Assembly (NCBI RefSeq): GCF_055900595.2
Contig: NZ_JBVWEU010000003.1
Length of the DNA: 64,000 nucleotides
Source: a plasmid
Reading direction: 5' to 3' (one strand)
The translations under genes were made by a program, and so were the position numbers. Below are positions 965 to 50,299 of the stretch, piece by piece; positions within the stretch are counted from its first letter, which is position 1, and every line of letters starts with the position of its first letter. A model generated the notes under the pieces. It saw nothing but the letters and a program-made list of their open reading frames with translations. It searched no databases and was not told the origin of the DNA.

Positions 965-2923
965 ATGTCAGTTACAGAGTCTAAGACAAAAACGGAGCGT
1001 AAATCCAGCCGTAAACCTGCAAAAACGCAGGAAACAGTCCTGTCTGCCCTGCTGGCGCAGACGGAGGAAGTGAGCGTGCCGCTGGCCTCACTGATTAAGT
1101 CACCGCTGAATGTGCGCACGGTGCCGTATTCTGCGGAGTCCGTCAGTGAACTGGCTGATTCCATTAAGGGGGTCGGCCTGCTGCAGAATCTGGTTGTTCA
1201 TGCCCTGCCAGGTGACCGCCACGGTGTCGCCGCAGGTGGTCGCCGACTGGCTGCACTCAATATGCTGGCAGAGCGTGGCATCATTCCGGCGGACTGGCCT
1301 GTCCGCGTGAAGGTTATTCCGCAGGAACTGGCGACGGCGGCATCAATGACTGAAAACGGTCATCGTCGGGATATGCACCCTGCTGAACAGATTGCCGGAT
1401 TCCGCGCAATGGCGCAGGAAGGCAAAACACCTGCACAAATCGGTGATTTGCTGGGCTATTCACCCCGCCATGTCCAGCGAATGCTGAAACTGGCTGACCT
1501 TGCGCCTGTCATCCTCGATGCGCTGGCAGAAGACCTCATCACCACCGAGCACTGTCAGGCGCTGGCGCTGGAGAACGACACCGCTCGTCAGGTGCAGGTG
1601 TTTGAAGCCGCCTGTCAGTCAGGATGGGGCGGTAAACCGGAAGTGCAGACCATTCGTCGTCTGGTGACCGAAAGTGAAGTGGCGGTGGCGGGGAACAGTA
1701 AATTCCGCTTCGTGGGGGCTGATGCCTTCTCGCCAGATGAACTGCGCACCGATTTGTTCAGCGATGACGGGGACGGTTATGTCGACCGCGTGGCGCTCGA
1801 TGCCGCCCTGCTGGAAAAACTCCAGGCTGTCGCTGAACACCTTCGGGAAGCCGAAGGCTGGGAATGGTGCGCCGGACGTATGGAGCCTGTCGGTTTCTGC
1901 CGTGAGGATGCCGGAACATACCGCAGTCTGCCGGAGCCGGAAGCTGTGCTGACGGAGGCGGAAGAAGAACGCCTGAACGAACTGATGGCACGTTACGACG
2001 CGCTGGAAAATCAGTGTGAGGAATCCGACCTGCTGGAAGCAGAAATGAAGCTGATGCGCTGCATGGCGAAGGTCAGGGCGTGGACGCCGGAGATGCGTGC
2101 CGGAAGTGGCGTGGTGGTGTCCTGGCGTTATGGAAACGTATGTGTCCAGCGTGGTGTGCAGTTGCGCAGTGAGGATGACGTGGCTGACGACGCTGGCCGC
2201 ACGGAACAGGTGCAGGAGAAAGCCTCCGTGGAGGGAATCAGTCTGCCGCTGCTGACGAAAATGTCTTCCGAACGCACGCTGGCAGTCCAGGCGGCACTGA
2301 TGCAGCAGCCGGACAAATCCCTGGCACTGCTGGCATGGACGCTCTGCCTGAATGTGTTTGGCAGCGGAGCGTACAGTAAACCAGCACAAATCAGCCTGGA
2401 ATGTAAACATTATTCGCTGACCAGCGATGCGCCATCGGGGAAGGAAGGTGCCGCGTTCATGGCGATGATGGCAGAAAAAGCCCGTCTTGCGGCCCTGTTA
2501 CCGGGGGGATGGTCACGGGACATGACGACGTTCCTTTCACTCAGTCAGGAGGTGCTGTTATCCCTGCTCAGTTTCTGCACCGCGTGCAGCATCCACGGCG
2601 TTCAGACCCGCGAGTGTGGTCACACGCCACGCAGCCCGCTGGACACGCTGGAGAGCGCCATCGGTTTTCACATGCGCGACTGGTGGCAGCCGACAAAAGC
2701 AAACTTCTTCGGACACCTGAAAAAGCCGCAGATTATCGCAGCCCTGAATGAGGCAGGACTGTCCGGTGCCGCACGGGACGCGGAGAAGATGAAGAAAGGC
2801 GATGCGGCTGAACATGCAGAGTTCCATATGAAAGACAACCGCTGGGTGCCTGGCTGGATGTGTGCACCACGTCCACAGACGGATACCACTGAACGCACTG
2901 ATAACCTGGCTGATGCCGCCTGA
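965..2923 (+). CDS. ParB-like nuclease domain protein of the leading region
   Basis: 652 aa; N-terminal ParB/Sulfiredoxin-like segment (LQNLVVHALPGD...GGRRLAAL) plus HTH-like segment (PAQIGDLLGYSPRHVQRMLKLA); conserved position upstream of psiB. Confidence 0.8.
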   Translation: MSVTESKTKTERKSSRKPAKTQETVLSALLAQTEEVSVPLASLIKSPLNVRTVPYSAESVSELADSIKGVGLLQNLVVHALPGDRHGVAAGGRRLAALNMLAERGIIPADWPVRVKVIPQELATAASMTENGHRRDMHPAEQIAGFRAMAQEGKTPAQIGDLLGYSPRHVQRMLKLADLAPVILDALAEDLITTEHCQALALENDTARQVQVFEAACQSGWGGKPEVQTIRRLVTESEVAVAGNSKFRFVGADAFSPDELRTDLFSDDGDGYVDRVALDAALLEKLQAVAEHLREAEGWEWCAGRMEPVGFCREDAGTYRSLPEPEAVLTEAEEERLNELMARYDALENQCEESDLLEAEMKLMRCMAKVRAWTPEMRAGSGVVVSWRYGNVCVQRGVQLRSEDDVADDAGRTEQVQEKASVEGISLPLLTKMSSERTLAVQAALMQQPDKSLALLAWTLCLNVFGSGAYSKPAQISLECKHYSLTSDAPSGKEGAAFMAMMAEKARLAALLPGGWSRDMTTFLSLSQEVLLSLLSFCTACSIHGVQTRECGHTPRSPLDTLESAIGFHMRDWWQPTKANFFGHLKKPQIIAALNEAGLSGAARDAEKMKKGDAAEHAEFHMKDNRWVPGWMCAPRPQTDTTERTDNLADAA

Positions 2924-2974
2924 TGAACAACCACACCGCCCCGCCGGAGACGGGGCGGCAGCAAGGGAGATACC

Positions 2975-3412
2975 GTGATGAAAACTGAACTGACCCTGAA
3001 TGTATTACAGACCATGAGTGCACAGGAATATGAAGATATCCGTGCTGCGGGAAGCGATATGCGCCGTAATCTCACTCACGAGGTGATGCGTGAAGTGGAC
3101 GCACCGGCTAACTGGATGATGAATGGCGAGTATGGCAGTGAGTTCGGGGGCTTTTTCCCCGTCCAGGTTCGTTTCACGCCAGCCCACGAACGTTTCCACC
3201 TGGTATTATGTTCGCCGGGAGAAGTCTCTCAGCTCTGGATGCTGGTTCTGGTGAATGGTGGTGGACAGCCTTTCGCCGTCGTTCAGGTGCAACATATCTT
3301 CACGCCTGTCGCGATCAGTCACACGCTGGCGCTCGCCGCGACACTTGATGCGCAGGGATACAGTGTTAACGACATCATTCATATTTTGATGGCAGAAGGA
3401 GGTCAGGCATGA
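2975..3412 (+). CDS. psiB: Plasmid SOS inhibition protein B
   Basis: 145 aa; near-identical over its length to PsiB as recalled ([13 protein letters not shown]...[13 protein letters not shown]). Confidence 0.95.
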
Positions 3413-4128
3413 GCGCACGTTCACGGGCACTGATCCCCCTCAGCGCAGAACAACAGGCCGCCATGCAGGCTGTGGCTGTCACCGAACAACGTCGTCGTCA
3501 GGGACGCACACTTTCAGCATGGCCTTATGCCAGCGCTTTCTTTCGCTGCCTGAATGGCAGTCGCCGGATTTCGCTGACCGATCTCCGCTTTTTTGCTCCT
3601 GCGCTGACGAAGGAGGAATTTCATGGCAACCGTCTCCTGTGGCTGGCTGCCGTGGATAAACTGATTGAAAGTTTTGGTGAAGTCTGTGTTCTTCCCCTGC
3701 CATCCGATGCGGGGCACCGTCTGTTCCCGTCCGTTCCTTTTCGTGAAGGTGAGCGTCGTCGTCAGAAAACCACGCTGACAGAGCAGAAATACAGCCGCCA
3801 GCGGGAACGTGAGGCAGAACGACGGGAACTGGAATACCAGACATGTTTTGCTCAGGCGCAGATTGACCTTGCGTTTCATACTCCCTCCACGGTCGGAAGC
3901 TGGTTGTCCCGCTGGTCTGGTGTTGTTGAGGAGCATGATCTGGAAACGATTTTCTGGGGGTGGTGCGGGCGTTTTCCGTCACTGTCATCATTTGACCGTT
4001 TTTTCTGGCAGGAGGAACCACTCTGGCGGCTGATTTTTGAAGCCGGTGAGGCCGGTCGTGGTGCACCGGTACAGGTACGTGCACTTGAGCAGTGGATGAT
4101 CCCGAACAAGCTGGAGAACGTAATATGA
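3409..4128 (+). CDS. psiA: Plasmid SOS inhibition protein A
   Basis: 239 aa; start overlaps the psiB stop (ATGA); matches PsiA N-terminus (MSARS.ALIPLS.EQQAA...[19 protein letters not shown]). Confidence 0.95.
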
Positions 4129-4721
4129 TGAAATCAGACGAAAAATACCAGGTTCCCGCGTGGATGCGACCTCTGTTGCCGTTGCTCTGCAACACCGGGG
4201 AGAACGATCCGGAAGAACTGCTGAATGATACAGAAACCACTGCCAGTGCGAATGTTGTCCGTTATGTACTGATAGTTGCAGTGCGGTCGCAGGTTGATCT
4301 GCTGCAGCTTCTGTACAGGAAAGGGCTGTTGCGCACAGAGATACCAGGTGGCTTTTCACCGGAAGAAGCGCAGGAACTCCTGGATAATCTGGTGCGCAGC
4401 CATATCAGCAGGGCGCTGTCGGGTGAGCGAATGGCAGCCCGTGACAGGAATGCCGATCTGGCCTGGATTCGACAGCAACTGGTCGATGCCGCCTGGTTTG
4501 TCCGTGCCACACTGGAAGCGCATGGGATGAGCGTCGGAAATGAGAGTCCCCCTGCTCAGCCGGAGACAATGCCGGACATACAGACACGGGAACTGGTGAT
4601 GTTGATCAAGCGACTGGCATCATCGCTGAAAGCGGTGAAACCGGACAGTTGTGTGGTGCGTGAAGCGCAGGACTGGCTGCGCGACAGAAAACTTGTGAGC
4701 ATCACGGATGTTCTTCGGTGA
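4125..4721 (+). CDS. Hypothetical leading-region protein
   Basis: ATG overlapping the psiA stop (TAATATGATG); about 199 aa, acidic, no recognisable motif. Confidence 0.5.
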   Translation: MMKSDEKYQVPAWMRPLLPLLCNTGENDPEELLNDTETTASANVVRYVLIVAVRSQVDLLQLLYRKGLLRTEIPGGFSPEEAQELLDNLVRSHISRALSGERMAARDRNADLAWIRQQLVDAAWFVRATLEAHGMSVGNESPPAQPETMPDIQTRELVMLIKRLASSLKAVKPDSCVVREAQDWLRDRKLVSITDVLR

Positions 4722-5185
4722 ACCAGTGGAGGTATGCTTGAGGGGCAGGGACATGCCGGTCATGATCGTTTCGTTCCAGGGGTGGTCTGGAGATCATGCG
4801 GCGTGTCCTCTGCACTCGCCGGAATAAGGACGTCGCCGCCGGCTCCGCTTTTACCCGGCCATGCGGGGCATGGCCTTGTGGGTTTTCAGTTATGTGGCCG
4901 CCGTGTCGTGTGCGGGCTGTGCCGTGCCTCCATCGTAGCCGGGCTTCTGCGGGCGGGATGCAAGGTAAGATGAACCGCTGCGGTCACCCGGTCCCTCCTT
5001 CCCGTCTGCCGTGATTTTCCGGTCGTTCACCCGCTCAGATTTCGCGGTCTCACCCTCCAACTCCCGTCAGCCGTGCGCGTCGGGCTGCGGCTTTCCTTGC
5101 GCCCTTGCATCCCTGCAGGCCCGGCAAAGATGGAGGCACGGCACCGCCCGGTGTCGCAGAACATGTGACTATGGAGGATTCGGGA

Positions 5186-5686
5186 ATGTCTGTTGTTGCA
5201 CCTGCTGTATACGTTGGAACCTGGCACAAATATAACTGCGGAAGCATCGCCGGCCGCTGGTTTGACCTGACCACGTTTGATGATGAACGCGATTTTTTCG
5301 CCGCCTGCCGTGCCCTTCACCAGGATGAAACCGATCCGGAACTGATGTTTCAGGATTATGAGGGTTTCCCGGGGAATATGGCCTCTGAATGTCATATCAA
5401 CTGGGCCTGGGTTGAAGGCTTCCGCCGGGCACGGGATGAAGGCTGCGAAGAGGCTTATCGTCTCTGGGTGGATGATACCGGTGAGACGGATTTTGACAGC
5501 TTCCGCGATGCCTGGTGGGGCGAGGCTGACAGTGAGGAGGCTTTTGCGGTTGAGTTCGTCAGTGATACCGGCCTGCTGGCTGACGTGCCGGAGACGGTGG
5601 CGCTCTATTTTGACTATGAGGCGTATGCGCGGGATTTATTCCTGGACTCCTTCACCTTTATTGACGGTCATGTGTTCCGTCGGTGA
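5186..5686 (+). CDS. ardA: Antirestriction protein ArdA (type I R-M inhibitor, DNA mimic)
   Basis: 166 aa from the in-frame ATG at 5186, preceded by GGAGG; highly acidic; matches ColIb-P9 ArdA as recalled (MSVVAPAVYVGTWHKYNCGSIAGRWFDL...IDGHVFRR). Confidence 0.9.
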   Translation: MSVVAPAVYVGTWHKYNCGSIAGRWFDLTTFDDERDFFAACRALHQDETDPELMFQDYEGFPGNMASECHINWAWVEGFRRARDEGCEEAYRLWVDDTGETDFDSFRDAWWGEADSEEAFAVEFVSDTGLLADVPETVALYFDYEAYARDLFLDSFTFIDGHVFRR

Positions 5687-6024
5687 TTTACTCCCCCGCT
5701 CCGGCGGGGGTATGGCCTGCCGGGCCGCCGGAAAACCCTGGCAGGCTTACGCCTGCCTGAAATGCAGGAGGGCCGCGCCTGCGGCGCTGCCCTTCCTGCC
5801 CGTCATGGTGTGAGGCATTTTTCTGTTATGTCGTTTCTGTTGTTCTGATTTCCGGAGGCGGGGACACCCTTCGGCTCCCGGCTGCCTGGCGGCATCCGGT
5901 CGTCAGGCCCGACTCCGACAGGCAGCTGCTGGCGCACCCGCCAGTCTCCGCCGAACCCGCTGGCGCGGTTTCGGGCTGCCGCTACGGTCCGATGTCTGAA
6001 AAACCAGGCCTGCAGCGACCGTTC

Positions 6025-6400
6025 CGGTCGCGCCGCCCCTGTCGCGCCGGAAACGGCGCTCCCTGCACACCTGACGGTGTGTAAGGCCACTGCGCCTGAT
6101 GGCGCAGTTGTCTGCCCTTCCGCCGCCACCCCTGCGGCCTGTTTCCCGCTGTGGACTTTCCGGGGGCTGAAGCGGCCACAACACGTTTCAGCCGTCCAGG
6201 GGAGAGATGTACCAGCCACAAAACTTTTTGCCGCAGGCGTCAAAAACTTTTGCGTCTGCCCCCGGACAACTGCCCCGTGCCGTGGCAGTCGCTGCCCCAT
6301 CGGAAAGGTCCACTGCGGGGAGAAACCCCGAAGAAGTGGACGGCAGAAGGGGCTTTCGCCCCTCCGGGGAATAACCGGTCGGCCCGGCGACCTGATTCAG
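6025..6400 (+). promoter_or_regulatory. ssi/Frpo-like single-strand promoter element (repeat copy B)
   Basis: About 370-bp GC-rich non-coding element, near-identical in blocks to 8895-9255; several short hairpins (ACACC-TGAC-GGTGT, CTGCGCC-TGAT-GGCGCAG, GGGGC-TTTC-GCCCC); directly upstream of a + strand gene block. Confidence 0.6.
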
Positions 6401-6417
6401 CAGAAGGAGACGTTTTC

Positions 6418-6852
6418 ATGACAGTCAGCAGCACGATTTCCGTTTTTTGCCGAGACGGGGTGTTCCGTACCGTTTACTGCCACCTGCACGGTGAGCCGAC
6501 CTGGAACGGTCGCATCCTGCATACCCACTATGCCACCGGTCAGCTGGCCGAAGCCCTGGTTGAACACGGAGATATCCGTTGCCTCGGTCCCCGTTGCGAC
6601 AAACCCGCCGGGCATACGCTTCAGAACCCGGTGGACGGTGTGACGGCTTATTACGGACGTGACAGTGGTTTCCGGATGGACAGTGAAGCGCGTGAGTACC
6701 GCTCTTTCAGGGAGGCTATTGCCACTGAAAGCACAGAAGAGGTGCGCTTCCATTATGTGTTCATCGACGGCTACTGGAAGGTGATGTACCGCACGCCGGA
6801 AGGCTGGAAGATGAAAGCGCTCGCGCTGGCACTGCGTCGCTGTCCGGAATGA
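6418..6852 (+). CDS. Hypothetical leading-region protein (first gene after ssi copy B)
   Basis: 144 aa from ATG 6418 with GGAGA RBS; Cys/His-rich N-terminus (CRDG...CHLHGE...C..PRC); no family recognised. Confidence 0.55.
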   Translation: MTVSSTISVFCRDGVFRTVYCHLHGEPTWNGRILHTHYATGQLAEALVEHGDIRCLGPRCDKPAGHTLQNPVDGVTAYYGRDSGFRMDSEAREYRSFREAIATESTEEVRFHYVFIDGYWKVMYRTPEGWKMKALALALRRCPE

Positions 6853-11121: not shown

Positions 11122-13842
11122 ATGAATGCCATTATTCCGCACAAAAGACGTGACGGCAGGTCTTCCTTTGAAGACCTGATTGCGTACACGTCTGTGCGGG
11201 ATGATGTGCAGGAAAATGAGCTCACAGAAGACAGCGAAATCAAGAGTGATGTCCCTCACCGCAACCGTTTCAGACGGCTTGTTGATTATGCAACACGCCT
11301 GCGTAACGAAAAATTTGTCTCCCTGATTGATGTGATGAAAGACGGCAGTCAGTGGGTAAATTTCTATGGCGTAACCTGTTTCCATAACTGCAATTCACTG
11401 GAAACAGCTGCTGAAGAGATGCAGTACAAGGCGGACAAAGCTGTTTTTTCCCGTAATGATACAGACCCCGTTTTCCACTACATTCTTTCCTGGCCTGCGC
11501 ATGAAAGCCCGCGTCCTGAGCAGCTTTTTGACTGTGTGCGTCACACACTGAAATCTCTTGAACTCTCAAAACATCAGTACGTGGCTGCCGTTCATACGGA
11601 CACGGATAATCTGCATGTGCATGTTGCCGTGAATCGTGTACATCCTGAAACTGGTTATATTAACTGGCTTTCCTGGAGCCAGGAAAAACTCAGTCGTGCA
11701 TGCCGTGAACTTGAACTTAAGCACGGATTTGCGCCGGATAATGGCTGCTTTGTGCATGCACCCGGCAACCGTATTGTGCGCAAAACAGCGCTGGTACGTG
11801 AGCGCCGTAATGCCTGGCGACGCGGGAAAAAGCAGACGTTCAGGGAATATATTGCGCAGATGTCGATTGCCGGGCTGCGTGAAGAGCCCGCACAGGACTG
11901 GTTATCTTTGCATAAACGGCTGGCCAGTGATGGTCTGTATATCACGATGCAGGAAGGGGAACTGGTGGTGAAGGATGGCTGGGACAGAGCGCGGGAAGGT
12001 GTTGCACTCAGTTCGTTCGGACCGTCATGGACAGCTGAAAAACTGGGGCGGAAACTGGGGGAATATCAGCCTGTACCGACAGATATTTTCAGTCAGGTGG
12101 GGACACCCGGTCGTTATGATCCGGAAGCCATAAACGTGGATATCCGGCCGGAAAAAGTGGCAGAAACGGAGAGTCTGAAACAGTACGCCTGTCGTCACTT
12201 TGCTGAACGCTTACCGGAAATGGCGCGAAATGGTGAACTGAAAAGTTGCCTGGCTGTACACCGTACTCTGGCAGAGGCGGGATTATGGATGGGGATTCAG
12301 CACGGGCATCTGGTACTGCATGATGGATTTGATAAACAACAGACACCAGTACGTGCAGACAGTGTGTGGCCGTTAATGACGCTGGATTATATGCAGGATC
12401 TGGATGGTGGATGGCACTCTGTACCGAAGGATATTTTTACTCAGGTTATACCCGAAGAACGATTCCGGGGACACAGTATTGGCACTCAGGCTGTCAGCGA
12501 TTACGAATGGTATCGCATGAGGATGGGCACTGGTCCACAGGGTGCCATAAAGCGTGAACTGTTTTCCGATAAGGAAAGTCTGTGGGGATACGCTCTTATT
12601 CAGTGCAGGAGCCAGATTGAAGAGATGATAGCTGGCGGGGATTTCAGCTGGCAGGCATGTCATGAGATGTTTGCGCGTAAAGGGCTTATGCTGCAGAAAC
12701 AGCATCATGGTCTCGTGATTGTGGATGCGTTTAATCATGAACTGACACCGGTGAAGGCCAGCAGTATCCACCCGGATTTGACGTTATCCCGGGCCGAGCC
12801 TCAGGCCGGGCCATTTGAAATTGCGGCTGCAGATATTTTCGAACGGGTGAAGCCTGAATGTCGCTACAATCCGGAACTTGCTGCCAGTGATGAAGTGGAG
12901 CCCGGCTTCCGGCGCGATCCTGAGCTGCGTCGTGAGCGCCGTGAAGCCCGTGCAGCTGCGCGGGAAGATTTGCGTGCGCGTTATCTTGCATGGAAGGAAC
13001 ACTGGCGTAAACCCGATTTACGTTACGGCGAACGGTTGCGGGAAATTCATGCTGCCTGCCGTCGTCGCAAGGCTCATATCCGCGTGCAGTTCCGGGATCC
13101 ACAATTGCGTAAACTGCATTACCATATTGCAGAAGTGCAACGTATGCAGGCGCTGATCAGACTGAAGGAAAATGTCAGGGAAGAGCGACTGGCGCTGATG
13201 GCGGAGGGTAAGTGGTATCCGTTGTCCTACCGGCAGTGGGTGGAACAACAGGCGGCGCAAGGCGACAGAGCTGCAGTGTCACAGCTCCGAGGCTGGGATT
13301 ATCGCGATCGTCGCTCGCGTAATAAGGATAAAAGACGCACAACTAATGCTGATCGTTGTGTCGTTCTCTGCGAACCCGGAGGAACGCCACTTTTTAATAA
13401 TGTTGCAAAACTTGAAGCTCGTCTTCAGAAAAATGGAAGTGTTCATTTCAGGGATACGCGGACAGGAAAAAATGTCTGTACGGATTACGGAGATCGGGTT
13501 GTGTTCTACCATCACACGGACCGAAATGAACTGGCAGAGAAGCTTGATTTAATTGCGCCAGTTCTGTTCAGCCGCAACGGAAAGCTTGGTTTTGAGCCGG
13601 AAGGTTCATACCAGCAGTTTAATGATGTGTTTGCAGAAATGGTGGCCTGGCACAATGCAGCGGGAATAACCGGAAACGGACACTTCACCATTACTCGTCC
13701 GGACGTGGATTTGCACCGTCAACGCAGTGAGCAGTATTACCGGGAATATATCAGACAGCAGACCCGTTTATCGGAGAGCCATGATGATAATTATACGTTA
13801 CGGCAGGAGAAAACATGGGAGCCACCATCACCTGGAATGTAA
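11122..13842 (+). CDS. nikB: MOBP-family relaxase NikB
   Basis: 906 aa; His-rich relaxase motif HTDTDNLHVHVAVNRVHPETG; size and position match R64 NikB. Confidence 0.9.
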   Translation: MNAIIPHKRRDGRSSFEDLIAYTSVRDDVQENELTEDSEIKSDVPHRNRFRRLVDYATRLRNEKFVSLIDVMKDGSQWVNFYGVTCFHNCNSLETAAEEMQYKADKAVFSRNDTDPVFHYILSWPAHESPRPEQLFDCVRHTLKSLELSKHQYVAAVHTDTDNLHVHVAVNRVHPETGYINWLSWSQEKLSRACRELELKHGFAPDNGCFVHAPGNRIVRKTALVRERRNAWRRGKKQTFREYIAQMSIAGLREEPAQDWLSLHKRLASDGLYITMQEGELVVKDGWDRAREGVALSSFGPSWTAEKLGRKLGEYQPVPTDIFSQVGTPGRYDPEAINVDIRPEKVAETESLKQYACRHFAERLPEMARNGELKSCLAVHRTLAEAGLWMGIQHGHLVLHDGFDKQQTPVRADSVWPLMTLDYMQDLDGGWHSVPKDIFTQVIPEERFRGHSIGTQAVSDYEWYRMRMGTGPQGAIKRELFSDKESLWGYALIQCRSQIEEMIAGGDFSWQACHEMFARKGLMLQKQHHGLVIVDAFNHELTPVKASSIHPDLTLSRAEPQAGPFEIAAADIFERVKPECRYNPELAASDEVEPGFRRDPELRRERREARAAAREDLRARYLAWKEHWRKPDLRYGERLREIHAACRRRKAHIRVQFRDPQLRKLHYHIAEVQRMQALIRLKENVREERLALMAEGKWYPLSYRQWVEQQAAQGDRAAVSQLRGWDYRDRRSRNKDKRRTTNADRCVVLCEPGGTPLFNNVAKLEARLQKNGSVHFRDTRTGKNVCTDYGDRVVFYHHTDRNELAEKLDLIAPVLFSRNGKLGFEPEGSYQQFNDVFAEMVAWHNAAGITGNGHFTITRPDVDLHRQRSEQYYREYIRQQTRLSESHDDNYTLRQEKTWEPPSPGM

Positions 13843-30917: not shown

Positions 30918-31448
30918 TCAGAAGGCGAGACCAAGACTCGCCAGAGAGGCATCGATGACGCGATCGATAAAAACCAGCAGAACGCCGGCAACAAACTTGA
31001 CGTTTCCTTTGCTGATGGACTCACTGCTGCTCAGGGCGGTATGCCCGTCCAGCAGGGATTTACGCCAGATGGAAATGCCGTTCATGGCAAATCCCACTCC
31101 GGCCAGTTTTACCAGTGAGAGCATGGCATTGGCGGCACCGGCAGCGGCACCAAAGGTGGTTGGTTGTACATAAGCGATAGGGCCGAAGGAATCTGCCCTG
31201 AATCCCATCTGGGTACCCCCGGCATTGATGAAGGATGGCAGGGCGACCAGCATGCCGCAGATGACGATACCGGCGATAAATTTTCCCGGTCCCATACTGC
31301 GACGTCCTTCTGCCCGGGCGCGCATCAGATGACCGATAAGGCCGATAATCCCCAGCAGCTCTCCCCAGGTAAAGAGAAACTCCATGCCTGCACTGAAAAT
31401 ACCGCTGGCAAAGTTCTCTATGGCTGTCAGGGCATCAATGCTCATCAT
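30918..31448 (-). CDS. traQ: Membrane protein of the T4SS (traQ position)
   Basis: 176 aa, multiple TM helices; positional assignment. Confidence 0.5.
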   Translation of the reverse strand: MMSIDALTAIENFASGIFSAGMEFLFTWGELLGIIGLIGHLMRARAEGRRSMGPGKFIAGIVICGMLVALPSFINAGGTQMGFRADSFGPIAYVQPTTFGAAAGAANAMLSLVKLAGVGFAMNGISIWRKSLLDGHTALSSSESISKGNVKFVAGVLLVFIDRVIDASLASLGLAF

Positions 31449-32158
31449 CGTAATGTACCGGCAGAGGTGATGACTGCCCGGCTGGACGGGTCAATCCGGG
31501 TGATGGTGATGTTTCCCAGACTGTCGCCTTCCCGTACTGCCCAGGCACTGCCCTGCCAGCGGATCCAGGCCATTCCTTTTTCCACCGACATGATTTGCAT
31601 GCCCTGCAGGCGGGAAGGCGGGGTTTTCGTTGACTGGCCGTTATTCCCGGTCGGGATTTGCAGTGGTCCCTGCATCTGCAGGGCATGCACCTGCTTACGG
31701 GTTTCATCAAGCAACTGACGGGTTTCCTGTGCCCAGGCCTCATCTTTCCGTATGGTGTCGCCAAGGGTTGTGATGCTCTCTTTCAGCATGGTCAGGGTAC
31801 GTCGGATTTCCTCATCCCGCCTGTCCAGCTCTGCTTTCAGGTCACGGGCAAGCTGCTGCATGTCTGCCTGTGGGGTGACAGGAGGCGCGGACATGGTGTT
31901 TCCGCTCCCGGTCTCCGTTATGGGCATGGGCTCTGCCCAGCTTTCGGCTGCGGGCGGTGTGACATCGAAGCCTGCATCTGCAGGGGGCTCTGAGGGTGTC
32001 CGCAGAAACTTGTACCAGATGGCGGCCAGGATGATGAGGGCACAGCCGGCCCAGACCGGCAGGCTGTATCCCATATACTGGCGTTTCAGGAAGGATTTGC
32101 CGGATGCCGGTGCCGGCGTTTCGCCAAAGCTGCCGGGATCTTCATGTTCGTTTTTCAT
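31445..32158 (-). CDS. traP: TraP-position bitopic membrane protein
   Basis: 237 aa; one TM helix and a coiled-coil region; positional assignment. Confidence 0.55.
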   Translation of the reverse strand: MKNEHEDPGSFGETPAPASGKSFLKRQYMGYSLPVWAGCALIILAAIWYKFLRTPSEPPADAGFDVTPPAAESWAEPMPITETGSGNTMSAPPVTPQADMQQLARDLKAELDRRDEEIRRTLTMLKESITTLGDTIRKDEAWAQETRQLLDETRKQVHALQMQGPLQIPTGNNGQSTKTPPSRLQGMQIMSVEKGMAWIRWQGSAWAVREGDSLGNITITRIDPSSRAVITSAGTLR

Positions 32159-35548: not shown

Positions 35549-38500
35549 TCATCGGCCGGGGCTGTGAGATTGTGCCTGTTGCAGAGTTTTTTCCTGCCTG
35601 TCCTCCGCCTTTTGGCTGTCAGACCACTCTTTCCAGGTCTGCTCAAAACCCAGAGAGCGGAAAAGCTTGTCCGGCTGCTCTTCCGGTTTATGGATGGCGG
35701 CAAACAACGGCGTATCCTGTTGCTTCAGGTGAAACTGCATCATTTGTGGGGCCGGACGCTGATGAGTATTCTCATCGTGGTTGACAGCTTCACCGTAGCC
35801 GGCAAACTGCAGACCGTTATCCGTCAGTGCATTGATGACCAGCTGACGGTTGTTTGTTGTCGGGGTGGCCAGTGCCGGGTAGAGGGTGCCGTTCAGACGG
35901 ACCACTCCCTGCAGATGCTCATCTGCGCTGTGGACCAGCAGAAGATTCAACTGACGATTGTCCTTATCGGCGGAGGCGACGGCAGGAATCAGTTCATCGG
36001 GGGCTTTACCAGCGAGGGGGAGTCGCATTGATTGATCCTGAGGTTCTGATGCAGGTTGCCTGTCTTCACCAATGTACAGATTATTGGGAGGATTTTTGGG
36101 GGAACGAACTTCCTGCATTATCTGTGGCCAGTGTTGCTGCATTTGTGACATTACCTGACTGAATGTTTTCATCGGAAATTCCAGGATATGCTGACCAGCA
36201 TGAGGAAGGTCATTATCGACGGTAATGCCGTTACTGACAGGAGTCATGGCCCAGATATTTCGCACCCATTCCGGTTTGCCCGGTGATGAAGGTGATCTCT
36301 CCCGGGCCTGCAATGTCAGCGTGACGGGGTCGCCTTTCTGGTGGTTTTTGACCAGTTCTTCCAGGCCTTTTCCCCAGTATTCCCGTTTGCCACTGCGGTT
36401 GGTGAGCTCCACAAAAAAGCAGCGCCCTTTTCCGGGCGCATACTCTTTTTCTCCGTAGTTTGTCAGGACGGCAGTCACACTTTCACCGGGGCTGAGCTTG
36501 CCGGGCGGCTCTTCCTCCGGTGTGTCGGGTTGCTGCGGCTGTGCACTGACAGGGGCTTTTTCTGGCGCTGACGACGGGGCGGCTGGTTGTTCCGGTCTGT
36601 CGGCCCGGGGGGCTTCAGCTTTTGCCGTGACCGGCGCTTCCGGATGCGGTGTTTCAGCCGTACTGCCTGCTGTTTGTTCAGCCTCTGCCTTCGGTGACAC
36701 AGGGGGTTCCGGTTGTGCCATTGTTGTTTCTTCCGGTGACTGGCGGTTGAGTTCCGGCGTGGGTCTGTGGGTGACAATGGCATCATGCACCATCTCTTTT
36801 TCCTTGCGGAGTTTTTCCAGTGCTGCCCTCTGGGCCGGGAGTTTCATGCGAACCTTGATGTCGTATTCGACAATCAGCTGCATGGCTTTTTGTTTAAAGG
36901 CATCACTGCCGGTCAGCTCGATAACGCCGCCATAGAAGTTGGTGGCCACAGCAAGGGCAGCCAGAACCTTTTTGTCATCCGCGCTGGCACCATCCACCAT
37001 TTCGAGACAATAGAGTCTGTCCAGGAAGGCTGGTTCGCCGTCAACACGGAAGAGCGCTGTCCTGTCGGGAAACTCTTCGTGCTCAAGATTTTTAATAATC
37101 TCGTCCAGGTTGTGCCGCTGCGGACTGTCGGGACGGCGGGGCGCAAAGATAATCGTGTCCGGTTCCGCTGACGATGTGTCTTCCGGGCTGTTTTCCGGTG
37201 GTGATGGTGGTGCGACCTCCTCTGTTGCTGTTTCAGCCTCCGTGGGCTTTTTCTCCTGAATAACGGAAGGTTCTGAGGTGCGTGATTTCCCACCGGTCAG
37301 AAAACGGCGCAGACGGCTGAAAAGCGATGGCGTTTCAGGGGGGGCTGCTTCATTCGCTGTGCTGGTCTCAGTGGCGGACACAAGACGCTCTTCCTGCAGT
37401 TTATCTTCAGCCGTCGGTTCAGCGGTGGCCTGCCGGACTGGCTGAGTTTCTGCTGGTTCAGAAGGTGAGGCTGTTTCTGCTGTGCCGGTGTTGTGAACAG
37501 TGGCAGCAACCGTGGCATCGGCATTGAGCTCCTCAGGCGGTGCGTCACGGTTGTTATCGGGGACGGCAGAGGCACTCTTTTCACTGGTATCCGTTGCAGA
37601 CAGAACATCCTCTTCCTGCGGTTTATTTTCTGCCGTTGCTTCAGGGGTTGCCTGCTGAACAGGCTCAGTCCCGGCAGGTTCAGAAGGTGAGGCTGTTTCT
37701 GTTGTATCGGTGTGGTGAGCCGTGGTCATCACAGTGGCATCAGCGTTGAGGTCTTCCGCAAATGCGCTCCAGTCGTCAGCGCTGGCCATGGAGACCTGCA
37801 GTTGTTCTTCAGTCTGCGTTGTGGTGGTGTGCTGTGTCCCGGTCGCGTCGGAGACGGAGGTTTCCGGTGTGTCGTCACCTGGGGAGAGCTCTTCTGCCTG
37901 TACGCTCTGGTTGTCAGCGGTGGTGGCAGAGGCATTTTTTTCACCGGTATCAGCGGCAGGTATAACGCTCTCCTGAGGTTTGTCTTCTGCTGTTGGTTCA
38001 GGGGAGGACTTCTGAACAGGCTGAATCTCTGCAGGTTCAGGAAGCGTTCCTGTTTCTGCTGTGTTGGTGTTGTGAGCGGTGTCTGTACCTGTGGCGTCTG
38101 TATTGAGGTCTTCCTGGTCGCCAGCGGTAGCCGCAGAGGTATTCTCTGTGCCGGTATCAGCGGCAGACGCAATATTCTCCAGTGGTTTATCCGGGGATAA
38201 CGTCTCCGTAGTTACTGACTGCAGGGATGCATAGGCGGCATAGTCATCTTCATATGCCTGGTTTTCTGTCTCTTCAGTGTGGATGTCATAAGGCGTATCC
38301 GGTGTCGCCAGCACCGTTTCCGGGGCTGTGCTCTGTTTGTTTTCAGGGGACATTTGTGGCTTCTCATCTTTTACCGGTGTGAATATCAGGTTGCCGATCA
38401 CGACAGCCTCACGGTGGTCGGCAGTGTCACTGTTGGGTGTGGGGATACCGATATGTTTTAACTGTGCGTTCATGACATGCTGAAAGTCGTCCCGTCCCCG

Positions 38501-39580
38501 GCTGGCGTCCAGGTCATTGAAATCGGTCAGTCCCTGTGCTTTTTCCTCCTCCGTAAAGGCCGGAATAATGACTTCGCCATTCGTGACTTCTGCGGCTTTT
38601 GTTGCACTAAAAACCCCCTTGTTAATTTCCCGTTGATGATCGTTGTCGGCACAGAAGACAAAGGGGCTGTCAGTCCAGATTTGGCGGGCATTTTCTGCCA
38701 CGGCAATCATATTGCCGGCATCAACTGTCATCAGAACCGGAAGGCCGGTGGCTTCGTGCAGGGAGGCGGCAGTAGCGTAACCTTCCGCAAATAACAGGGG
38801 ACGGCCATTTTCCGGGGTTCCGAAGGTGAACCAGTTGCCGGTTTTCTCGGAGTCTTTCAGAATGCGGGCATCCTTCCCGCCGGTGACCGGAATACGCTGG
38901 TACGAACGTATTTCCCCCCGGCCGTTGCTGAAGGGAATAACCAGCTCATTTTTATTGTTCAGCCGCACGCCAGGCGCGGCCCGGATGCCCTTGCGCGTCA
39001 GGTATTCATGTGCTGTTGCCTGTGGCAACCCGTTAATATAGGAGCGGGCATACCGGGCCTGTTTGTTGTACTGTTGCTGCAGTTTACGTGCGTTATCATC
39101 GCGCTGTTGCTGAGCGAATGCCCGCAGATGCAGTCTGGCCAGAGGATCGTGTTGTTCTCCGCCGGAAAATACCCAGTTTGTGGGACTGTCATCGGCGCTC
39201 CGGTAGTCGCGGTACCAGCCAGCGGGGCGCCCATCAAGATAGGCTTTGTATGCGCCACTTTTGGCCCCTTTTTTGTCATCCCGGGTGGCGACTCTGTGTA
39301 TGGCGCCATCCATCTGTGGCAATCCCTGAATAACCAGCCCGGCGTTTTCCAGGACCTGAGCAAATTCGGTGACCGGATCGCCGGCATCCATCGACAGTTC
39401 CTGCGGCCGGGGTAACCAGCGCTCCAGCAGAGAAAGTTCGGTACCTGCCCGGGCATACCAGAGTTTTTTTTCTGGATCCCATGCGACAGCTTTGCGGCCA
39501 TTTAACGGGGGTACTGCATTTTTTACGGCTTCTGTCTCCTCAGGCGGGACAGCAAGCCAGGTACGATATCTGGACTTCAT
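35549..39580 (-). CDS. sog: Sog DNA primase (TOPRIM primase transferred to the recipient), with an internal low-complexity repeat linker
   Basis: 1343 aa; N-terminal primase/TOPRIM-like region (LLFAEGYATAASL...FCADNDHQ); position between traL and traK as in R64. Confidence 0.85.
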   Translation of the reverse strand: MKSRYRTWLAVPPEETEAVKNAVPPLNGRKAVAWDPEKKLWYARAGTELSLLERWLPRPQELSMDAGDPVTEFAQVLENAGLVIQGLPQMDGAIHRVATRDDKKGAKSGAYKAYLDGRPAGWYRDYRSADDSPTNWVFSGGEQHDPLARLHLRAFAQQQRDDNARKLQQQYNKQARYARSYINGLPQATAHEYLTRKGIRAAPGVRLNNKNELVIPFSNGRGEIRSYQRIPVTGGKDARILKDSEKTGNWFTFGTPENGRPLLFAEGYATAASLHEATGLPVLMTVDAGNMIAVAENARQIWTDSPFVFCADNDHQREINKGVFSATKAAEVTNGEVIIPAFTEEEKAQGLTDFNDLDASRGRDDFQHVMNAQLKHIGIPTPNSDTADHREAVVIGNLIFTPVKDEKPQMSPENKQSTAPETVLATPDTPYDIHTEETENQAYEDDYAAYASLQSVTTETLSPDKPLENIASAADTGTENTSAATAGDQEDLNTDATGTDTAHNTNTAETGTLPEPAEIQPVQKSSPEPTAEDKPQESVIPAADTGEKNASATTADNQSVQAEELSPGDDTPETSVSDATGTQHTTTTQTEEQLQVSMASADDWSAFAEDLNADATVMTTAHHTDTTETASPSEPAGTEPVQQATPEATAENKPQEEDVLSATDTSEKSASAVPDNNRDAPPEELNADATVAATVHNTGTAETASPSEPAETQPVRQATAEPTAEDKLQEERLVSATETSTANEAAPPETPSLFSRLRRFLTGGKSRTSEPSVIQEKKPTEAETATEEVAPPSPPENSPEDTSSAEPDTIIFAPRRPDSPQRHNLDEIIKNLEHEEFPDRTALFRVDGEPAFLDRLYCLEMVDGASADDKKVLAALAVATNFYGGVIELTGSDAFKQKAMQLIVEYDIKVRMKLPAQRAALEKLRKEKEMVHDAIVTHRPTPELNRQSPEETTMAQPEPPVSPKAEAEQTAGSTAETPHPEAPVTAKAEAPRADRPEQPAAPSSAPEKAPVSAQPQQPDTPEEEPPGKLSPGESVTAVLTNYGEKEYAPGKGRCFFVELTNRSGKREYWGKGLEELVKNHQKGDPVTLTLQARERSPSSPGKPEWVRNIWAMTPVSNGITVDNDLPHAGQHILEFPMKTFSQVMSQMQQHWPQIMQEVRSPKNPPNNLYIGEDRQPASEPQDQSMRLPLAGKAPDELIPAVASADKDNRQLNLLLVHSADEHLQGVVRLNGTLYPALATPTTNNRQLVINALTDNGLQFAGYGEAVNHDENTHQRPAPQMMQFHLKQQDTPLFAAIHKPEEQPDKLFRSLGFEQTWKEWSDSQKAEDRQEKTLQQAQSHSPGR
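37330..38190 (-). repeat. Three tandem copies of a roughly 225-bp unit inside sog, encoding a Thr/Ala/Glu/Pro-rich linker
   Basis: Protein repeats of the form LNADATV.TAH.T.TAETASPSEPA.T.PV.QAT.E.TAE.K.QEE; the many overlapping antisense ORFs in the track here are repeat artefacts. Confidence 0.7.
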
Positions 39581-46056: not shown

Positions 46057-47226
46057 TCAGCAAGGGGATGTGAGAATAGTGGTTGATTTTGTCATAAGCT
46101 GGTCGTTTGTTAACGGACAAATCATTACCCGTTCATCAATGTTTGTAGGAAGTTCGCCAGGAGTTGGGACACGCTCTCCTCGCTGGGCGGCTTGTGCCAG
46201 TGTTCGTAGCAGCAACACGCTGGCATGAAATATGGCCTGTTCTTTTGTGGCTGCGCTTGTTTCCAGGTCGAAATCACTCAGAGTCACAACGACTTGCCCG
46301 TTTCTGTTCTCGACCGTTGCCGGGTAGGGAACAAAATAGGGAGCGATTTTGCTGGTTTGCTTGCGTCGGGCATCGAGTTTACTGACAAGTTGATAAGCCC
46401 GAAGGTGTGTGTATCGTTTCAACATGTTCAGGGAGCGATGGCCTGAAATAGCGGCAACTTCAATGACATTCAATGTACCAAGTTCGAAAAATCGGCTGAT
46501 AGCCTCATGACGGAGGTCATGAAAATGCAAGTTTTCTATATTCAGTTCCTGAAGTGCTGTTCGCCAGGCACTTTTGAATCCCGAAGATGTATAAGAAAAA
46601 ATATTACCGTTAAGCTGTATTGGCAGCATTTGCAGGTAACTACGGGCTTTCCTGGATAGCGGAACATCGCGTGGAGCACCATTTTTGGTTGTTGGAAGAT
46701 GAGCTACCCCATGTTGCAGATCGACGTGTTCCCAACGCAATGACAAGATTTCACCTTGTCGCATTGCTGTTTCCAGCGCCAGATTAAAAATGACGTAAAG
46801 AGCCTGGTTTTTTTCTTTGAAGTACCGGGAAAGTCGGCGTTCTTCTCCTGAAGTCAGGCGACGATCGCGCCCGCTACTGATTTTGGGTTTTCGGACCAGT
46901 TCAACAGGATTCATACGGCATGTTCCCCATTCCACACGGGCGATATTGAATAATGATGATAAAAGGGCAAGTTCAAGACGGACGGTATTTCCGGTGATTT
47001 GACGCCCTGTTCGTGGGTTAATTTGAGCTAAACGCTGATCCCGGTAACCGGCGATATCAATGGTAGTGATTTCATCCATGTAGCGCTCGGCTATAGGGTG
47101 ACGTTTAATCACATTGACGCGATAAAACTCCTGTAGATGACCTTTTTTGTGGATGGATACTGTCTTCAGGTATTTGTCCAGCGCCCGGTTGAGAGTCATT
47201 TTGCGAATTTTTATTTTTCGAAACAT
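46057..47226 (-). CDS. rci: Shufflon-specific tyrosine recombinase Rci
   Basis: About 389 aa from [23 protein letters not shown]; tyrosine recombinase core ([11 protein letters not shown]...GH...LKRYTHL); matches R64 Rci as recalled; abuts the first sfx repeat. Confidence 0.9.
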
Positions 47227-47288
47227 ATCTGCCTTCCACGATAAATCCGAGGAAGGTAGGAATACTGAATCAGAAATGCAATGTCTCT

Positions 47289-48612
47289 GTGCCAATCCGG
47301 TTCGTGGAAAAATGCAGGAAAAGGCGATATTGAAATCGTCAAAGTAACAGCATCAAAATTCCGCTGGCCTGGTGCTACTGCCACCTGCCCAATGGGTAAG
47401 AAGGTGATCGGGGGTGGTGCAGAATGCAGCTCTGGAATTGGCTTTATCTGGCTTGTCCGTTCAATACCTGTAAACAATAATGCCTGGTATGGCTATTGCG
47501 ATACGACAGAACACATCATTGGAAAAATAACTGTACATGCCATTTGCCAATGACAAAGTGATTTACTGGCAAACCACAATGTAACTACATTTCCCCGTCA
47601 GGTCGTTCCTGTTTGTACCGCCGTGAAAATTGTATTCATCGTAGTAACCACACTTCACAATCCTGTTCGAATCATATGTCGCAACAGAACCTGCGAAGTA
47701 ATTTGGCTTCCAGCCATGCGGGTTTTCAGCATTGCTGACGCTCCAGGTACACTGGCTGGCAGAAAAACCAGACGGCAAAGGTAGTCGTTCTCCATTTGCG
47801 ATTTTTCCTGTCAGAACAGTGCTACCTGATACCCTAATCCACGAACCGGATTGGCACTGGCCTCCGTGCCAATCCGGTGTGTGGGTTGGCTTTGAATCCT
47901 ACCCTGTGGGAAGCCCTATCCCGTGGCCATCTGCCACTCCTCCACAAGGCTATCTGTTGATGAACGGCCAGTCGTTTTCCTGTTCCCGGTATCCTCAGCT
48001 TGCCCGTGCTTATCCTGGCTGTAAATTGCCCGATCTGCGCGGTGTTTTTATCCGTGGCTGGGATAACGGGAAGGGACTTGATGGTGATCGGAACAGACAA
48101 CTCCTGAGTTATCAGGCCGATCAATCAGGCGTCTATCACGAACGTGGCGGATGGCTGAAAGGGCATCATAGTGGTATGCCATACTGGGCACAGGGGAGTA
48201 CCACAGAAATGCGTCCCAAAAATATTGCATTCAACTACATTGTTAAAGCCAGCTAGGGACTCACATCTGATAGGCATACACAGAGAAAACACCGTTACCA
48301 CAGGCGTAATTTTGTGTTGGTCTGGAGATGATTTGATATGACGCTCCCACTGGCACGGCAAATGAAATAAATGCTGTCTTTCCGTAGGAGGGGTTATTGC
48401 TGGCATTCATACCAATGAAAGCGCCGTTCACATAGCCCTGAAGATTTGATGTGTTGGCGCAATCACCGCCACCGGCACCATTTCCACCGGAAGCGTACAC
48501 AAACAAAGTTCCTCTGCCGTTATTTCTCCCGTTAAATGTTCCCCGGTGAGAACCCAGATTGCTGTAACTTCCGTCAGGTGCACCAATCGTTCGCCACACA
48601 CCGGATTGGCAC
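47289..48612. other. Shufflon: two invertible segments bounded by four 19-bp sfx repeats
   Basis: sfx repeats GTGCCAATCCGGTTCGTGG at 47289-47307 (+) and 47839-47857 (inverted), GTGCCAATCCGGTGTGTGG at 47866-47884 (+) and 48594-48612 (inverted); alternative PilV C-terminal ORFs on both strands (47281-47553 +, 47563-47778 -, 47732-48256 +). Confidence 0.85.
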
Positions 48613-49595
48613 GAAAGTATTGCCCCTTTACTGTCGCGGCCTACAAGTCCGTCCGGTGAGCAGGAAGTACCTGCGGTGGCTGTTTTATCCAGCTGTAAAT
48701 ACTCACCCGTGGAAAGACGCCCCTCAGACCGGACAGTTCCACCACTGACTTTTCCTCCTTTGAGCTCTCCTTCGGTTGTGATCCCTTTGTTGTTAACAGC
48801 ACGTATCCATTGGCTGTCCGTCATGGTGAAACCGCCTCCGTGCGTCGTGTTCATCCACCCCTTGTTGTTTCTGGTGATAAGCCAGCCGTCTTCGCTGGTT
48901 ATATCGCCTTTCACCGTGGCTTTCTGACCATTGAGGTTACCGGCGTTATTGATGTCATTTCCGCCCATGTTGATAGCTGTGTGCATCTGGTTCAGCTCTG
49001 ATCTCCCCGGGACCTGGAAACGATACAACCTGTCGCTTTCCTGCAGATCATCACCCGTCATGACGACGGCAATGTGACCTGCCGAACAGGTGAGTCCGTA
49101 ATCCCCCGGTTTGTCTGTCCAGGCGCCGAATGCGCCGGTTGCTGTTCCGTTTTTACCAATATAACCACCCAGCCCGGGAAGCTGTCCTGCCACACTGCGC
49201 AGACCATCTTCTTTGATATTCTGCCCCCCTGTTGAGCAGGTCAGGGCTTCAAGACGTCCTGTAGTCTGGTTACGGCGGATACCCGTGATATAACTCTGCC
49301 CAAACGGAGAATGATTAAATCCCTGTTTCAGGTATCCCTTGCGAATCAAATCATCGGCTGTAAAGTTTGCCGGAAGGCTGCCGTTGTGCAGAGTGGCATT
49401 GTTATCGGCAATGTAATTTCTGGCTGCGGTATTGTAGGCATCTGCATGAGAAGCAGCACTCTGGTAAAGCTGTTCATTCAGCCAGTTTTCTATTTCGGAA
49501 TAAATCAGCGGCGTGGCGATACCAATCACTATCAGTCCCGCCAGTATTTCAAGCAGAATAAAACCTTTGTCGTCATCGTGTCTGAACTTTTTCAC
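48261..49595 (-). CDS. pilV: PilV thin-pilus adhesin (minor type IV pilin) with shufflon-encoded C-terminus
   Basis: 444 aa; prepilin-like N-terminus GFILLEILAGLIVIG; ORF crosses the sfx at 48594-48612 into the current segment B. Confidence 0.9.
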   Translation of the reverse strand: MKKFRHDDDKGFILLEILAGLIVIGIATPLIYSEIENWLNEQLYQSAASHADAYNTAARNYIADNNATLHNGSLPANFTADDLIRKGYLKQGFNHSPFGQSYITGIRRNQTTGRLEALTCSTGGQNIKEDGLRSVAGQLPGLGGYIGKNGTATGAFGAWTDKPGDYGLTCSAGHIAVVMTGDDLQESDRLYRFQVPGRSELNQMHTAINMGGNDINNAGNLNGQKATVKGDITSEDGWLITRNNKGWMNTTHGGGFTMTDSQWIRAVNNKGITTEGELKGGKVSGGTVRSEGRLSTGEYLQLDKTATAGTSCSPDGLVGRDSKGAILSCQSGVWRTIGAPDGSYSNLGSHRGTFNGRNNGRGTLFVYASGGNGAGGGDCANTSNLQGYVNGAFIGMNASNNPSYGKTAFISFAVPVGASYQIISRPTQNYACGNGVFSVYAYQM

Positions 49596-50299
49596 GTGAA
49601 TATCTCCGAAGTGCGGAAAACGGAATCAGGGAGGAGGGTTAGTGCATACAGTGATGCGCAGAGAAACGGGGCGAACGGCAGTGCCTGCTGACGTCTGCGA
49701 CGGCAGAAGAGGAGGATAAACAGAAATGCCCCGGAAGCTGCGGCGGTGATGAGCAGCGGCGTGTGTTGTGGCTGTGTCCACATTGCAATTCCTGCTATCA
49801 GGAATACATCACCAAGGCCGAGTGCTTCTGTTCCTTTTGCCGTTATGAAAAACTGCCGTAGCAGGTATGTCATGCCGAACCAGAGTGATGCGTTGAGGAG
49901 GCTGTATGTGAGCTCCTCCAGGCTGTACCTGAACGCTGCCCCCAGAACAATCAGTGAAAGCGTGAATATCCGGGGAAGCCGACAGACGGCGATGTCCGTC
50001 AGCGTCATTACAGTTAATAATCCCGTCAGAATGGAAAGGAATAACAGCCCCGTGGCTTCAACACCATATGCGCCGTTGAGGCTGACACTCACTATGGCCA
50101 GAAGGCAACACACGTACACCACCGGCCTGGGCGGCCGGGTGTCGTGTACTGCTGACAGGTAGAGAGCGGCGGTGATGTATGCAAGATAAAGAATAACCGC
50201 CAGGATGATGATTATTATTGTCATGCTCAGTAATGCGCTCACCGTCACCTCGTATTTATTAATATTGTCTGAAATACCGGTTGTGGATTTTTCGGGCAT
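49592..50299 (-). CDS. pilU: PilU prepilin peptidase (A24 family)
   Basis: 235 aa polytopic membrane protein; position after pilT. Confidence 0.75.
   Translation of the reverse strand: MPEKSTTGISDNINKYEVTVSALLSMTIIIIILAVILYLAYITAALYLSAVHDTRPPRPVVYVCCLLAIVSVSLNGAYGVEATGLLFLSILTGLLTVMTLTDIAVCRLPRIFTLSLIVLGAAFRYSLEELTYSLLNASLWFGMTYLLRQFFITAKGTEALGLGDVFLIAGIAMWTQPQHTPLLITAAASGAFLFILLFCRRRRQQALPFAPFLCASLYALTLLPDSVFRTSEIFT

Follow-up and report, generated by a model that had tools for sequence, protein, structure and literature searches.

Introduction

The shufflon of plasmid R64 is the textbook case of free multi-segment shuffling. As set out in the passages on site structure of PMC11852207, PMC5350095 and PMC9045228, an sfx site is made of an unconserved 12-bp left arm, a 7-bp crossover core and a conserved 12-bp right arm. 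Crossover takes place in the core and segments invert singly or in groups, according to the corresponding part of PMC9045228, and the part of PMC5430464 that deals with Rci has this recombinase act on any two inverted repeats. A synthetic cassette with ACG and ACC right arms has been built for Rci shuffling (PMC4176322).

Among the described systems, those of seven IncK2 plasmids were reported by Seiffert et al. in 2017, who counted 2 to 8 sites in each and named the repeats repeat-e, repeat-f (atc), repeat-g and repeat-h (ttg) (PMC5350095). In that set, three plasmids hold e-e arrays and p4809.66 is e-e-e-g, while pDV10 is g-g-e-e-e-e-h-f, pDV45 is e-e-e-e-g-g-h-f and pTMSA1088 is e-e-h-f-e-e-g-g; pDV10 and pTMSA1088 are identical beyond the shufflon and their arrays are permuted (PMC5350095). 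TCG and GTG triplets have also been reported in the IncI2 plasmids R721 and TP114, and TP114, whose sfx triplets are GTG, ATC and TCG, produces all eight of its variants (PMC9045228). Furthermore, IncI2 arrays of 1, 2 and 3 segments were confirmed from raw long reads by Sekizuka et al. (PMC5430464).

The window analysed here is the whole 64,000-nucleotide stretch of plasmid DNA taken from contig NZ_JBVWEU010000003.1. Its array region is very probably the known IncK2/Z shufflon in a form reduced to two segments. This system switches PilV, the tip adhesin of the conjugative type IVb thin pilus, by multiple inversions. The shufflon found here is already known, being an ordinary, previously described system.

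The rci-pilV locus and its backbone

Read from right to left on the minus strand, the locus consists of the prepilin peptidase gene, pilV, the array and rci (Table 1). ORFs for a prepilin peptidase, a transglycosylase and a pilin upstream place the array at the distal end of a type IVb thin-pilus operon, and the homologue of the prepilin peptidase ORF is annotated in relatives as an A24 family peptidase. As assembled, pilV is a constant region (48613-49595, minus strand) that continues into the Q- C-terminus. Over 373 aa, Rci and its R64 homologue are 76% identical; their alignment takes in the C-terminal extension and reaches residue 372 of 389.

A collinear pil/tra region is annotated in pPK8275-82kb, a plasmid typed IncK2/Z, MOBP and MPF_I, and the flanking 24 kb show 97.6-98.8% identity to typed IncK2/Z plasmids. 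From the similarity of its backbone and segments to MOB-suite-typed records, the plasmid can be putatively assigned to IncK2/Z. Two relatives match different parts of the locus: Rci (389/389 residues identical) and segment P (100%) match CP126939, and segment Q (100%) and the pilV constant region (325/327) are best matched by pPK8275-82kb. Such a pattern suggests either a mosaic origin from IncK2 sub-lineages or an array exchanged by recombination. Elsewhere in the window, a large ORF of 1343 aa (35549-39580, minus strand) occupies the position of an LPD7-domain protein gene that measures 4392 nt (about 1463 codons) in the annotation of pPK8275-82kb.

Table 1. Features of the shufflon locus, in window coordinates
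Feature	Coordinates	Strand	Length or sequence	Evidence and remarks
rci, shufflon-specific tyrosine recombinase	46057-47226	-	389 aa	PF00589 Phage_integrase, E 9e-25
sfx site 1, rci-proximal, repeat-e	47289-47307	+	GTGCCAATCCGGTTCGTGG	right arm TCCGGTTCGTGG, left arm TGCAATGTCTCT
sfx site 2, repeat-e	47839-47857	-	GTGCCAATCCGGTTCGTGG	exact 19-mer
Linker between back-to-back sites 2 and 3	47858-47865		8 bp, TGGCCTCC	
sfx site 3, repeat-g	47866-47884	+	GTGCCAATCCGGTGTGTGG	right arm TCCGGTGTGTGG
sfx site 4, pilV-proximal, repeat-g	48594-48612	-	GTGCCAATCCGGTGTGTGG	left arm GGCAATACTTTC
Invertible segment P	47289-47857		569 bp	two convergent C-terminal reading frames
P+ tip	47290-47553	+	87 aa	silent here; predicted 415-aa PilV (inversion simulation)
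P- tip	47563-47856	-	97 aa, CQSGSWIRVSG...	silent here; predicted 425-aa PilV (inversion simulation)
Invertible segment Q	47866-48612		747 bp	two convergent C-terminal reading frames
Q+ tip	47867-48256	+	129 aa	silent here; predicted 457-aa PilV (inversion simulation)
Q- tip	48261-48611	-		fused to pilV in the present assembly; 444-aa PilV
pilV as assembled	48261-49595	-	444 aa	PF04917 Shufflon_N, E 2e-105
Prepilin peptidase, pilU-like, upstream pil operon gene	49592-50299	-		ORF

The sfx sites

In agreement with the first-pass annotation, exact matches locate four 19-bp sfx sites in two perfect inverted pairs, in the order + - + -, and each of the two segments is bounded by its own identical pair, P by e/e and Q by g/g. 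The two sequences are string-identical to repeat-e GTGCCAATCCGGTtcgTGG and repeat-g GTGCCAATCCGGTgtgTGG of PMC5350095. The pairs had been said to differ at three positions; in fact they differ at two (TCG versus GTG, positions 14-15 of the 19-mer), the third mismatch of the repeat listing falling in the flank, beyond the 19-mer. The 7-bp core GTGCCAA, where PMC5350095 and PMC9045228 place the crossover, is the same in all four sites, and the conserved 12-bp right-arm frame TCCGGTNNNTGG is present at each of them with the right arm always pointing into the segment. The left arms are all different (TGCAATGTCTCT, GCACGGAGGCCA, GCACTGGCCTCC and GGCAATACTTTC), hence the sites are asymmetric with an unconserved 12-bp left arm. 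That of site 4 equals the left arm of R64 sfx101 (sfx101 sequence from PMC4176322), and the left arm of each internal site is formed by the linker plus 4 nt of the adjoining core.

The whole window was searched with GTGCCAATCCGGTNNNTGG allowing up to 3 mismatches, with 100 shuffles as control. Five matches were found in the 64 kb for 1.04 expected, a number reached by 0 of the 100 shuffles, and the array is thus not accounted for by chance. In the mismatch histogram of the window, which is clearly bimodal, four sites have 0 mismatches, no site has 1-2, one has 3 and six have 4. The relaxed-match check for additional sites, which had been proposed earlier, was run to 5 mismatches and found none in or near the array: besides the four, no further sfx occurs at ≤5 mismatches in 46.9-48.8 kb, and the array therefore holds no hidden sfx. 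The match at 31488-31506 (plus strand, GGGTCAATCCGGGTGATGG) has 3 mismatches, two of them in the core; such a match is expected by chance, and a role in recombination is improbable. This 19-mer sits in the tra region where the ORFs 30918-31448 and 31445-32158, annotated as traQ and traP in pPK8275-82kb, meet. A candidate at 12467, from a looser 13-mer search, was rejected as being without a right arm.

Segments P and Q and the PilV C-termini

The constant region reads ...TGC CAA TCC GGT NNN TGG, that is C-Q-S-G-X-W, where X is Val for Q and Ser for P, and the four alternative frames are all open, all start with CQSG-X-W and are all in frame with the pilV constant region. The variable triplet is a codon of the right arm and lies inside the segment; hence, identical ends mean only that both C-termini of a segment have the same starting residue.

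In silico inversion was performed with all facing site pairs more than 100 bp apart. Eight isomers result, and between them they encode four different PilV proteins, the current one of 444 aa and others of 457, 415 and 425 aa; this bears out the earlier estimate of at most four C-termini. In the simulation the P tips (415 and 425 aa) meet pilV only after inversion between sites 1 and 4, which pairs a repeat-e with a repeat-g. Each of the four lengths recurs in the pilV annotation of relatives in which the matching segment end stands beside pilV: 415 aa in LR999864, 425 aa in CP029742, 457 aa in CP080167 and MW390545, and 444 aa likewise in relatives.

The Q+ tip contains a Phage Tail Collar domain (PF07484, E 2e-13), has a match in the gp37 long-tail-fibre tip of T4 (2xgf, E 3e-20) and shares 42-47% identity with phage tail fibre C-termini (HK106, Aeromonas, Vibrio and Klebsiella phages), and it would therefore represent a receptor-binding module common to the pilus adhesin tip and phages. 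Pfam was informative for these proteins, and an NCBIfam search gave nothing specific for the C-termini or PilV.

The left arm on the rci side, TGCAATGTCTCT, includes an ATG in register with the sfx reading frame; therefore the segment end beside rci always forms a free-standing ORF. Here it is a predicted ORF of 90 aa (47281-47553, plus strand, MSLCQSGSW...), before which no obvious ribosome-binding site was seen. Relatives annotate the rci-side free-standing ORF as a CDS, 'shufflon protein B'.

Arrays in related plasmids

The arrays of 19 relatives were parsed together with that of R64. Among the first 13 relatives, segment P is found in 8 at 99.5-100% identity and segment Q in 6 at 99.7-100%, both of them in both orientations. 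One of the 19 relatives has a single segment, five have two, four have three and eight have four. The eight four-segment arrays, built from P, Q, R and S, all differ from each other in order or orientation, as for example P+ Q+ R+ S-, R+ Q+ P- S+, Q+ P- R- S- and S- R+ P- Q+, and two of the three-segment arrays read P+ R- Q+ (relative L021) and Q+ P+ R- (L022). Across the 19 relatives, P and Q are seen in all orders and orientations. The pairs had been presented as segment-specific, which does not hold for the IncK2 family, where repeat-e is found at the ends of segments S (554 bp), T (680 bp) and V (542 bp) as well, and repeat-g at those of U (527 bp) and T. Segment T, with its e/g ends, was considered as a P/Q hybrid and rejected, since only one half (71%) is common with Q and about 30 bp with P.

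The rci-side left arm TGCAATGTCTCT is joined to e+P in the window and in relatives L005 and L008, to g+Q in L015, to h+R in L004, to g+U in L011 and to e+T in L012, and on the pilV side the left arm GGC[A/G]ATACTTTC stands next to g+Q in either orientation, e+S, f+R, e+T and g+U. Such left arms that stay with the flanks and right arms that travel are, as read from these junctions, the footprint of exchange in the core.

Two plasmids with two-segment arrays are of particular use. pMbl536 is arranged as rci, T+ (e and g ends), U+ (g and g ends), pilV with the linker GGAGGCCA, and pMbl488 as rci, U+, T-, pilV with the linker TGGCCTCC. The order of two segments changes only via the outermost sites, and the swap between these plasmids thus requires recombination of a repeat-e with a repeat-g. 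The flipped linker and the inverted T of pMbl488 agree with a whole-array flip. Both plasmids have the same Rci (WP_134233607.1), which is identical to the Rci of the window at 381 of 389 residues. Among relatives L001-L022, the linker is either TGGCCTCC or its reverse complement GGAGGCCA; as it flips with every inversion that spans it, it therefore records the parity of multi-segment inversions.

Two further relatives show unusual arrays. In NZ_CP056076.1 (pMS1170_1, four segments; L015 above) no integrase is annotated beside the array and just 221 of 389 Rci residues could be matched in one ORF, so that its shufflon is probably locked by rci disruption. NZ_CP141232.1 (L001) holds, at 2790-6460, twelve sfx and six segments, with Q twice and a U-like segment with h/g ends, which could be either a real duplication or a long-read/short-read misassembly.

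Alternative explanations for the two-segment array

The small size of the array could be an artefact, if the real plasmid had three or four segments (P, Q, R, S, the set of most IncK2 relatives) and a short-read assembler collapsed them. Indeed, shufflons are a recognised assembly problem in the passages of PMC5350095 and PMC5430464 that cite Brouwer 2015, the window is equal to the isomer of CP141231 without R and S, no second record with exactly P and Q is present among the top PLSDB and RefSeq E. coli matches, and the six-segment array of CP141232 with its repeated Q is suspicious. However, shufflons with 2, 4 and 8 sites were confirmed by PCR and Sanger sequencing (Seiffert et al., PMC5350095), as were IncI2 arrays of 1-3 segments by raw long reads (Sekizuka et al., PMC5430464), five other two-segment IncK2/Z arrays exist among the 19 relatives, and the sequence itself is consistent, its pilV fusion being intact. 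A collapsed array thus appears unlikely. A different concern is that the array no longer inverts and that only the A-like PilV tip now fused is expressed, a state of which CP056076, without an intact rci, may be an example among the relatives. In the window, however, the rci ORF has its full length (389 aa), its product equals that of CP126939 and retains the motifs common with R64 Rci, all four sfx are perfect and the four alternative frames are open; such a locked remnant is considered very improbable.

The first-pass annotation had proposed that the identical pairs may favour independent inversion of each segment over recombination between segments, so that Rci would prefer identical sfx partners and the segments would rarely change places. 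In tyrosine recombinases, partner compatibility is set by the crossover region and not by the arms. Applied to the present sites by analogy, this would argue against the proposal, as the core is the same at 4/4 sites and only the right-arm triplet differs. The proposal also contradicts itself, since the four C-termini counted with it need e x g recombination; under a strict preference the half of the coding capacity held by P could never be expressed. Inversion rates do vary with the sfx variant (PMC11852207), and Sekizuka et al. speculated that unequal pilV variant abundance is tied to repeat type (PMC5430464). Nevertheless, P and Q are permuted in 8/8 four-segment relatives and in L021 and L022, a flip between repeat-e and repeat-g separates pMbl488 from pMbl536 with an identical Rci, TP114 yields all its variants from three different triplets (PMC9045228), and R64, which has identical-pair segments too, shuffles freely. 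The inter-segment rearrangements that were to be looked for are hence seen in close relatives (the four-segment arrays and the pMbl488/pMbl536 pair), and this is a statement on the relatives rather than on the population of the present molecule. Taken together, there is hardly any room for a preference of this kind.

A weaker form would have the right-arm triplet bias partner choice quantitatively, with e x e and g x g greatly faster than e x g, in which case the e-e-g-g array would be a fast two-state Q switch with a rarely accessed P reserve. If true, a two-tier phase-variation hierarchy would be encoded in a single codon of the recombination site, although a quantitative bias among site pairs would remain a small refinement of a well-studied system. 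We give this idea little credence.

Proposed mechanism and origin

For a reduced IncK2/Z shufflon, the mechanism of Rci and the role of PilV are taken from the literature, and the sites, the frames, the family identity and the permutations among relatives come from the present analysis. Rci would bind the conserved 12-bp right arm of each sfx, pair any two facing sites and exchange strands within the invariant core GTGCCAA. Right arms, including the variable codon, would then move with the segments and left arms would stay with the flanks. The usable pairs would be sites 1 and 2, which would flip P, sites 3 and 4, which would flip Q, and sites 1 and 4, which would flip the whole array and swap the order; sites 2 and 3 face each other 8 bp apart, presumably too close to recombine. 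Such inversions would give the 8 isomers and 4 PilV proteins, and presumably alter which recipients are bound in liquid mating. Inversion activity and a resulting mix of isomers are inferred for the present molecule, with the permuted and inverted segments among the 19 relatives as indirect support.

Most likely, the array once had four segments, P-Q-R-S, of which R and S were lost. If R and S are taken out of the CP141231 isomer P+ Q+ R+ S-, the array of the window results, down to the orientation of the linker; a deletion between the right-end sites of Q and S, which are directly oriented, would have this effect. Recombination between direct sfx is inhibited by site asymmetry yet not impossible, according to the passages of PMC5430464 and PMC9045228 that cite Gyohda 2006.

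With its two segments the plasmid can show up to four PilV adhesin tips, compared to eight for full IncK2 arrays and seven for R64, and with so few tips, fewer kinds of recipient may be reached in liquid mating. The array also marks a region of unreliable assembly, where otherwise identical plasmids will differ. Beyond annotation, the finding matters little.

Comparison with known shufflons

Compared with the IncK2 shufflons of pDV10, pDV45, pTMSA1088 and p4809.66, the window has the same sfx, the same IncK2/Z backbone and the same position between rci and pilV, and the pTMSA1088 array also has full-length P and Q. The exact e-e-g-g subset with P and Q only is absent from the arrays of PMC5350095 and from the 19 relatives parsed, and an identical array was not found among the top PLSDB and complete RefSeq E. 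coli matches either. The IncI2 shufflons (R721, TP114 and mcr-1 plasmids) have the same sfx consensus but a different backbone (MPF_T); the R721 shufflon is not within the first 40 kb of its record (L003).

The shufflon of R64 (IncI1) is larger, as stated in the first-pass annotation: its record holds four segments, seven sfx and seven C-termini, whereas the window holds two, four and four. Both share the core GTGCCAA, the right-arm frame TCCGGTNNNTGG and the pilV-proximal left arm GGCAATACTTTC, and both have back-to-back sites 8 bp apart, the R64 linker being TGGCCTAC. The triplets are ACG, ACC, CGG and ACT in R64 and TCG and GTG in the window, and R64 also has two segments with identical site pairs (ACC/ACC and ACG/ACG). 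Concerning the C-termini, the Q- tip is 67% identical to the one expressed in the R64 reference isomer, from the 574-bp ACG/ACG segment, and the Q+ tip has no counterpart among the seven of R64. For the P- tip, which relatives annotate as 'shufflon protein D'', the counterpart is the single ORF of the R64 329-bp segment (80% identity), and for the P+ tip, annotated in relatives as 'shufflon protein B', it is a C-terminus of the R64 525-bp segment (56% identity). Segment P combines this counterpart from the 525-bp segment with a D'-like tip and segment Q an A-like with a phage-tail-collar tip, and the IncK2 segments are thus a mosaic of the R64 repertoire plus one phage-like tip.
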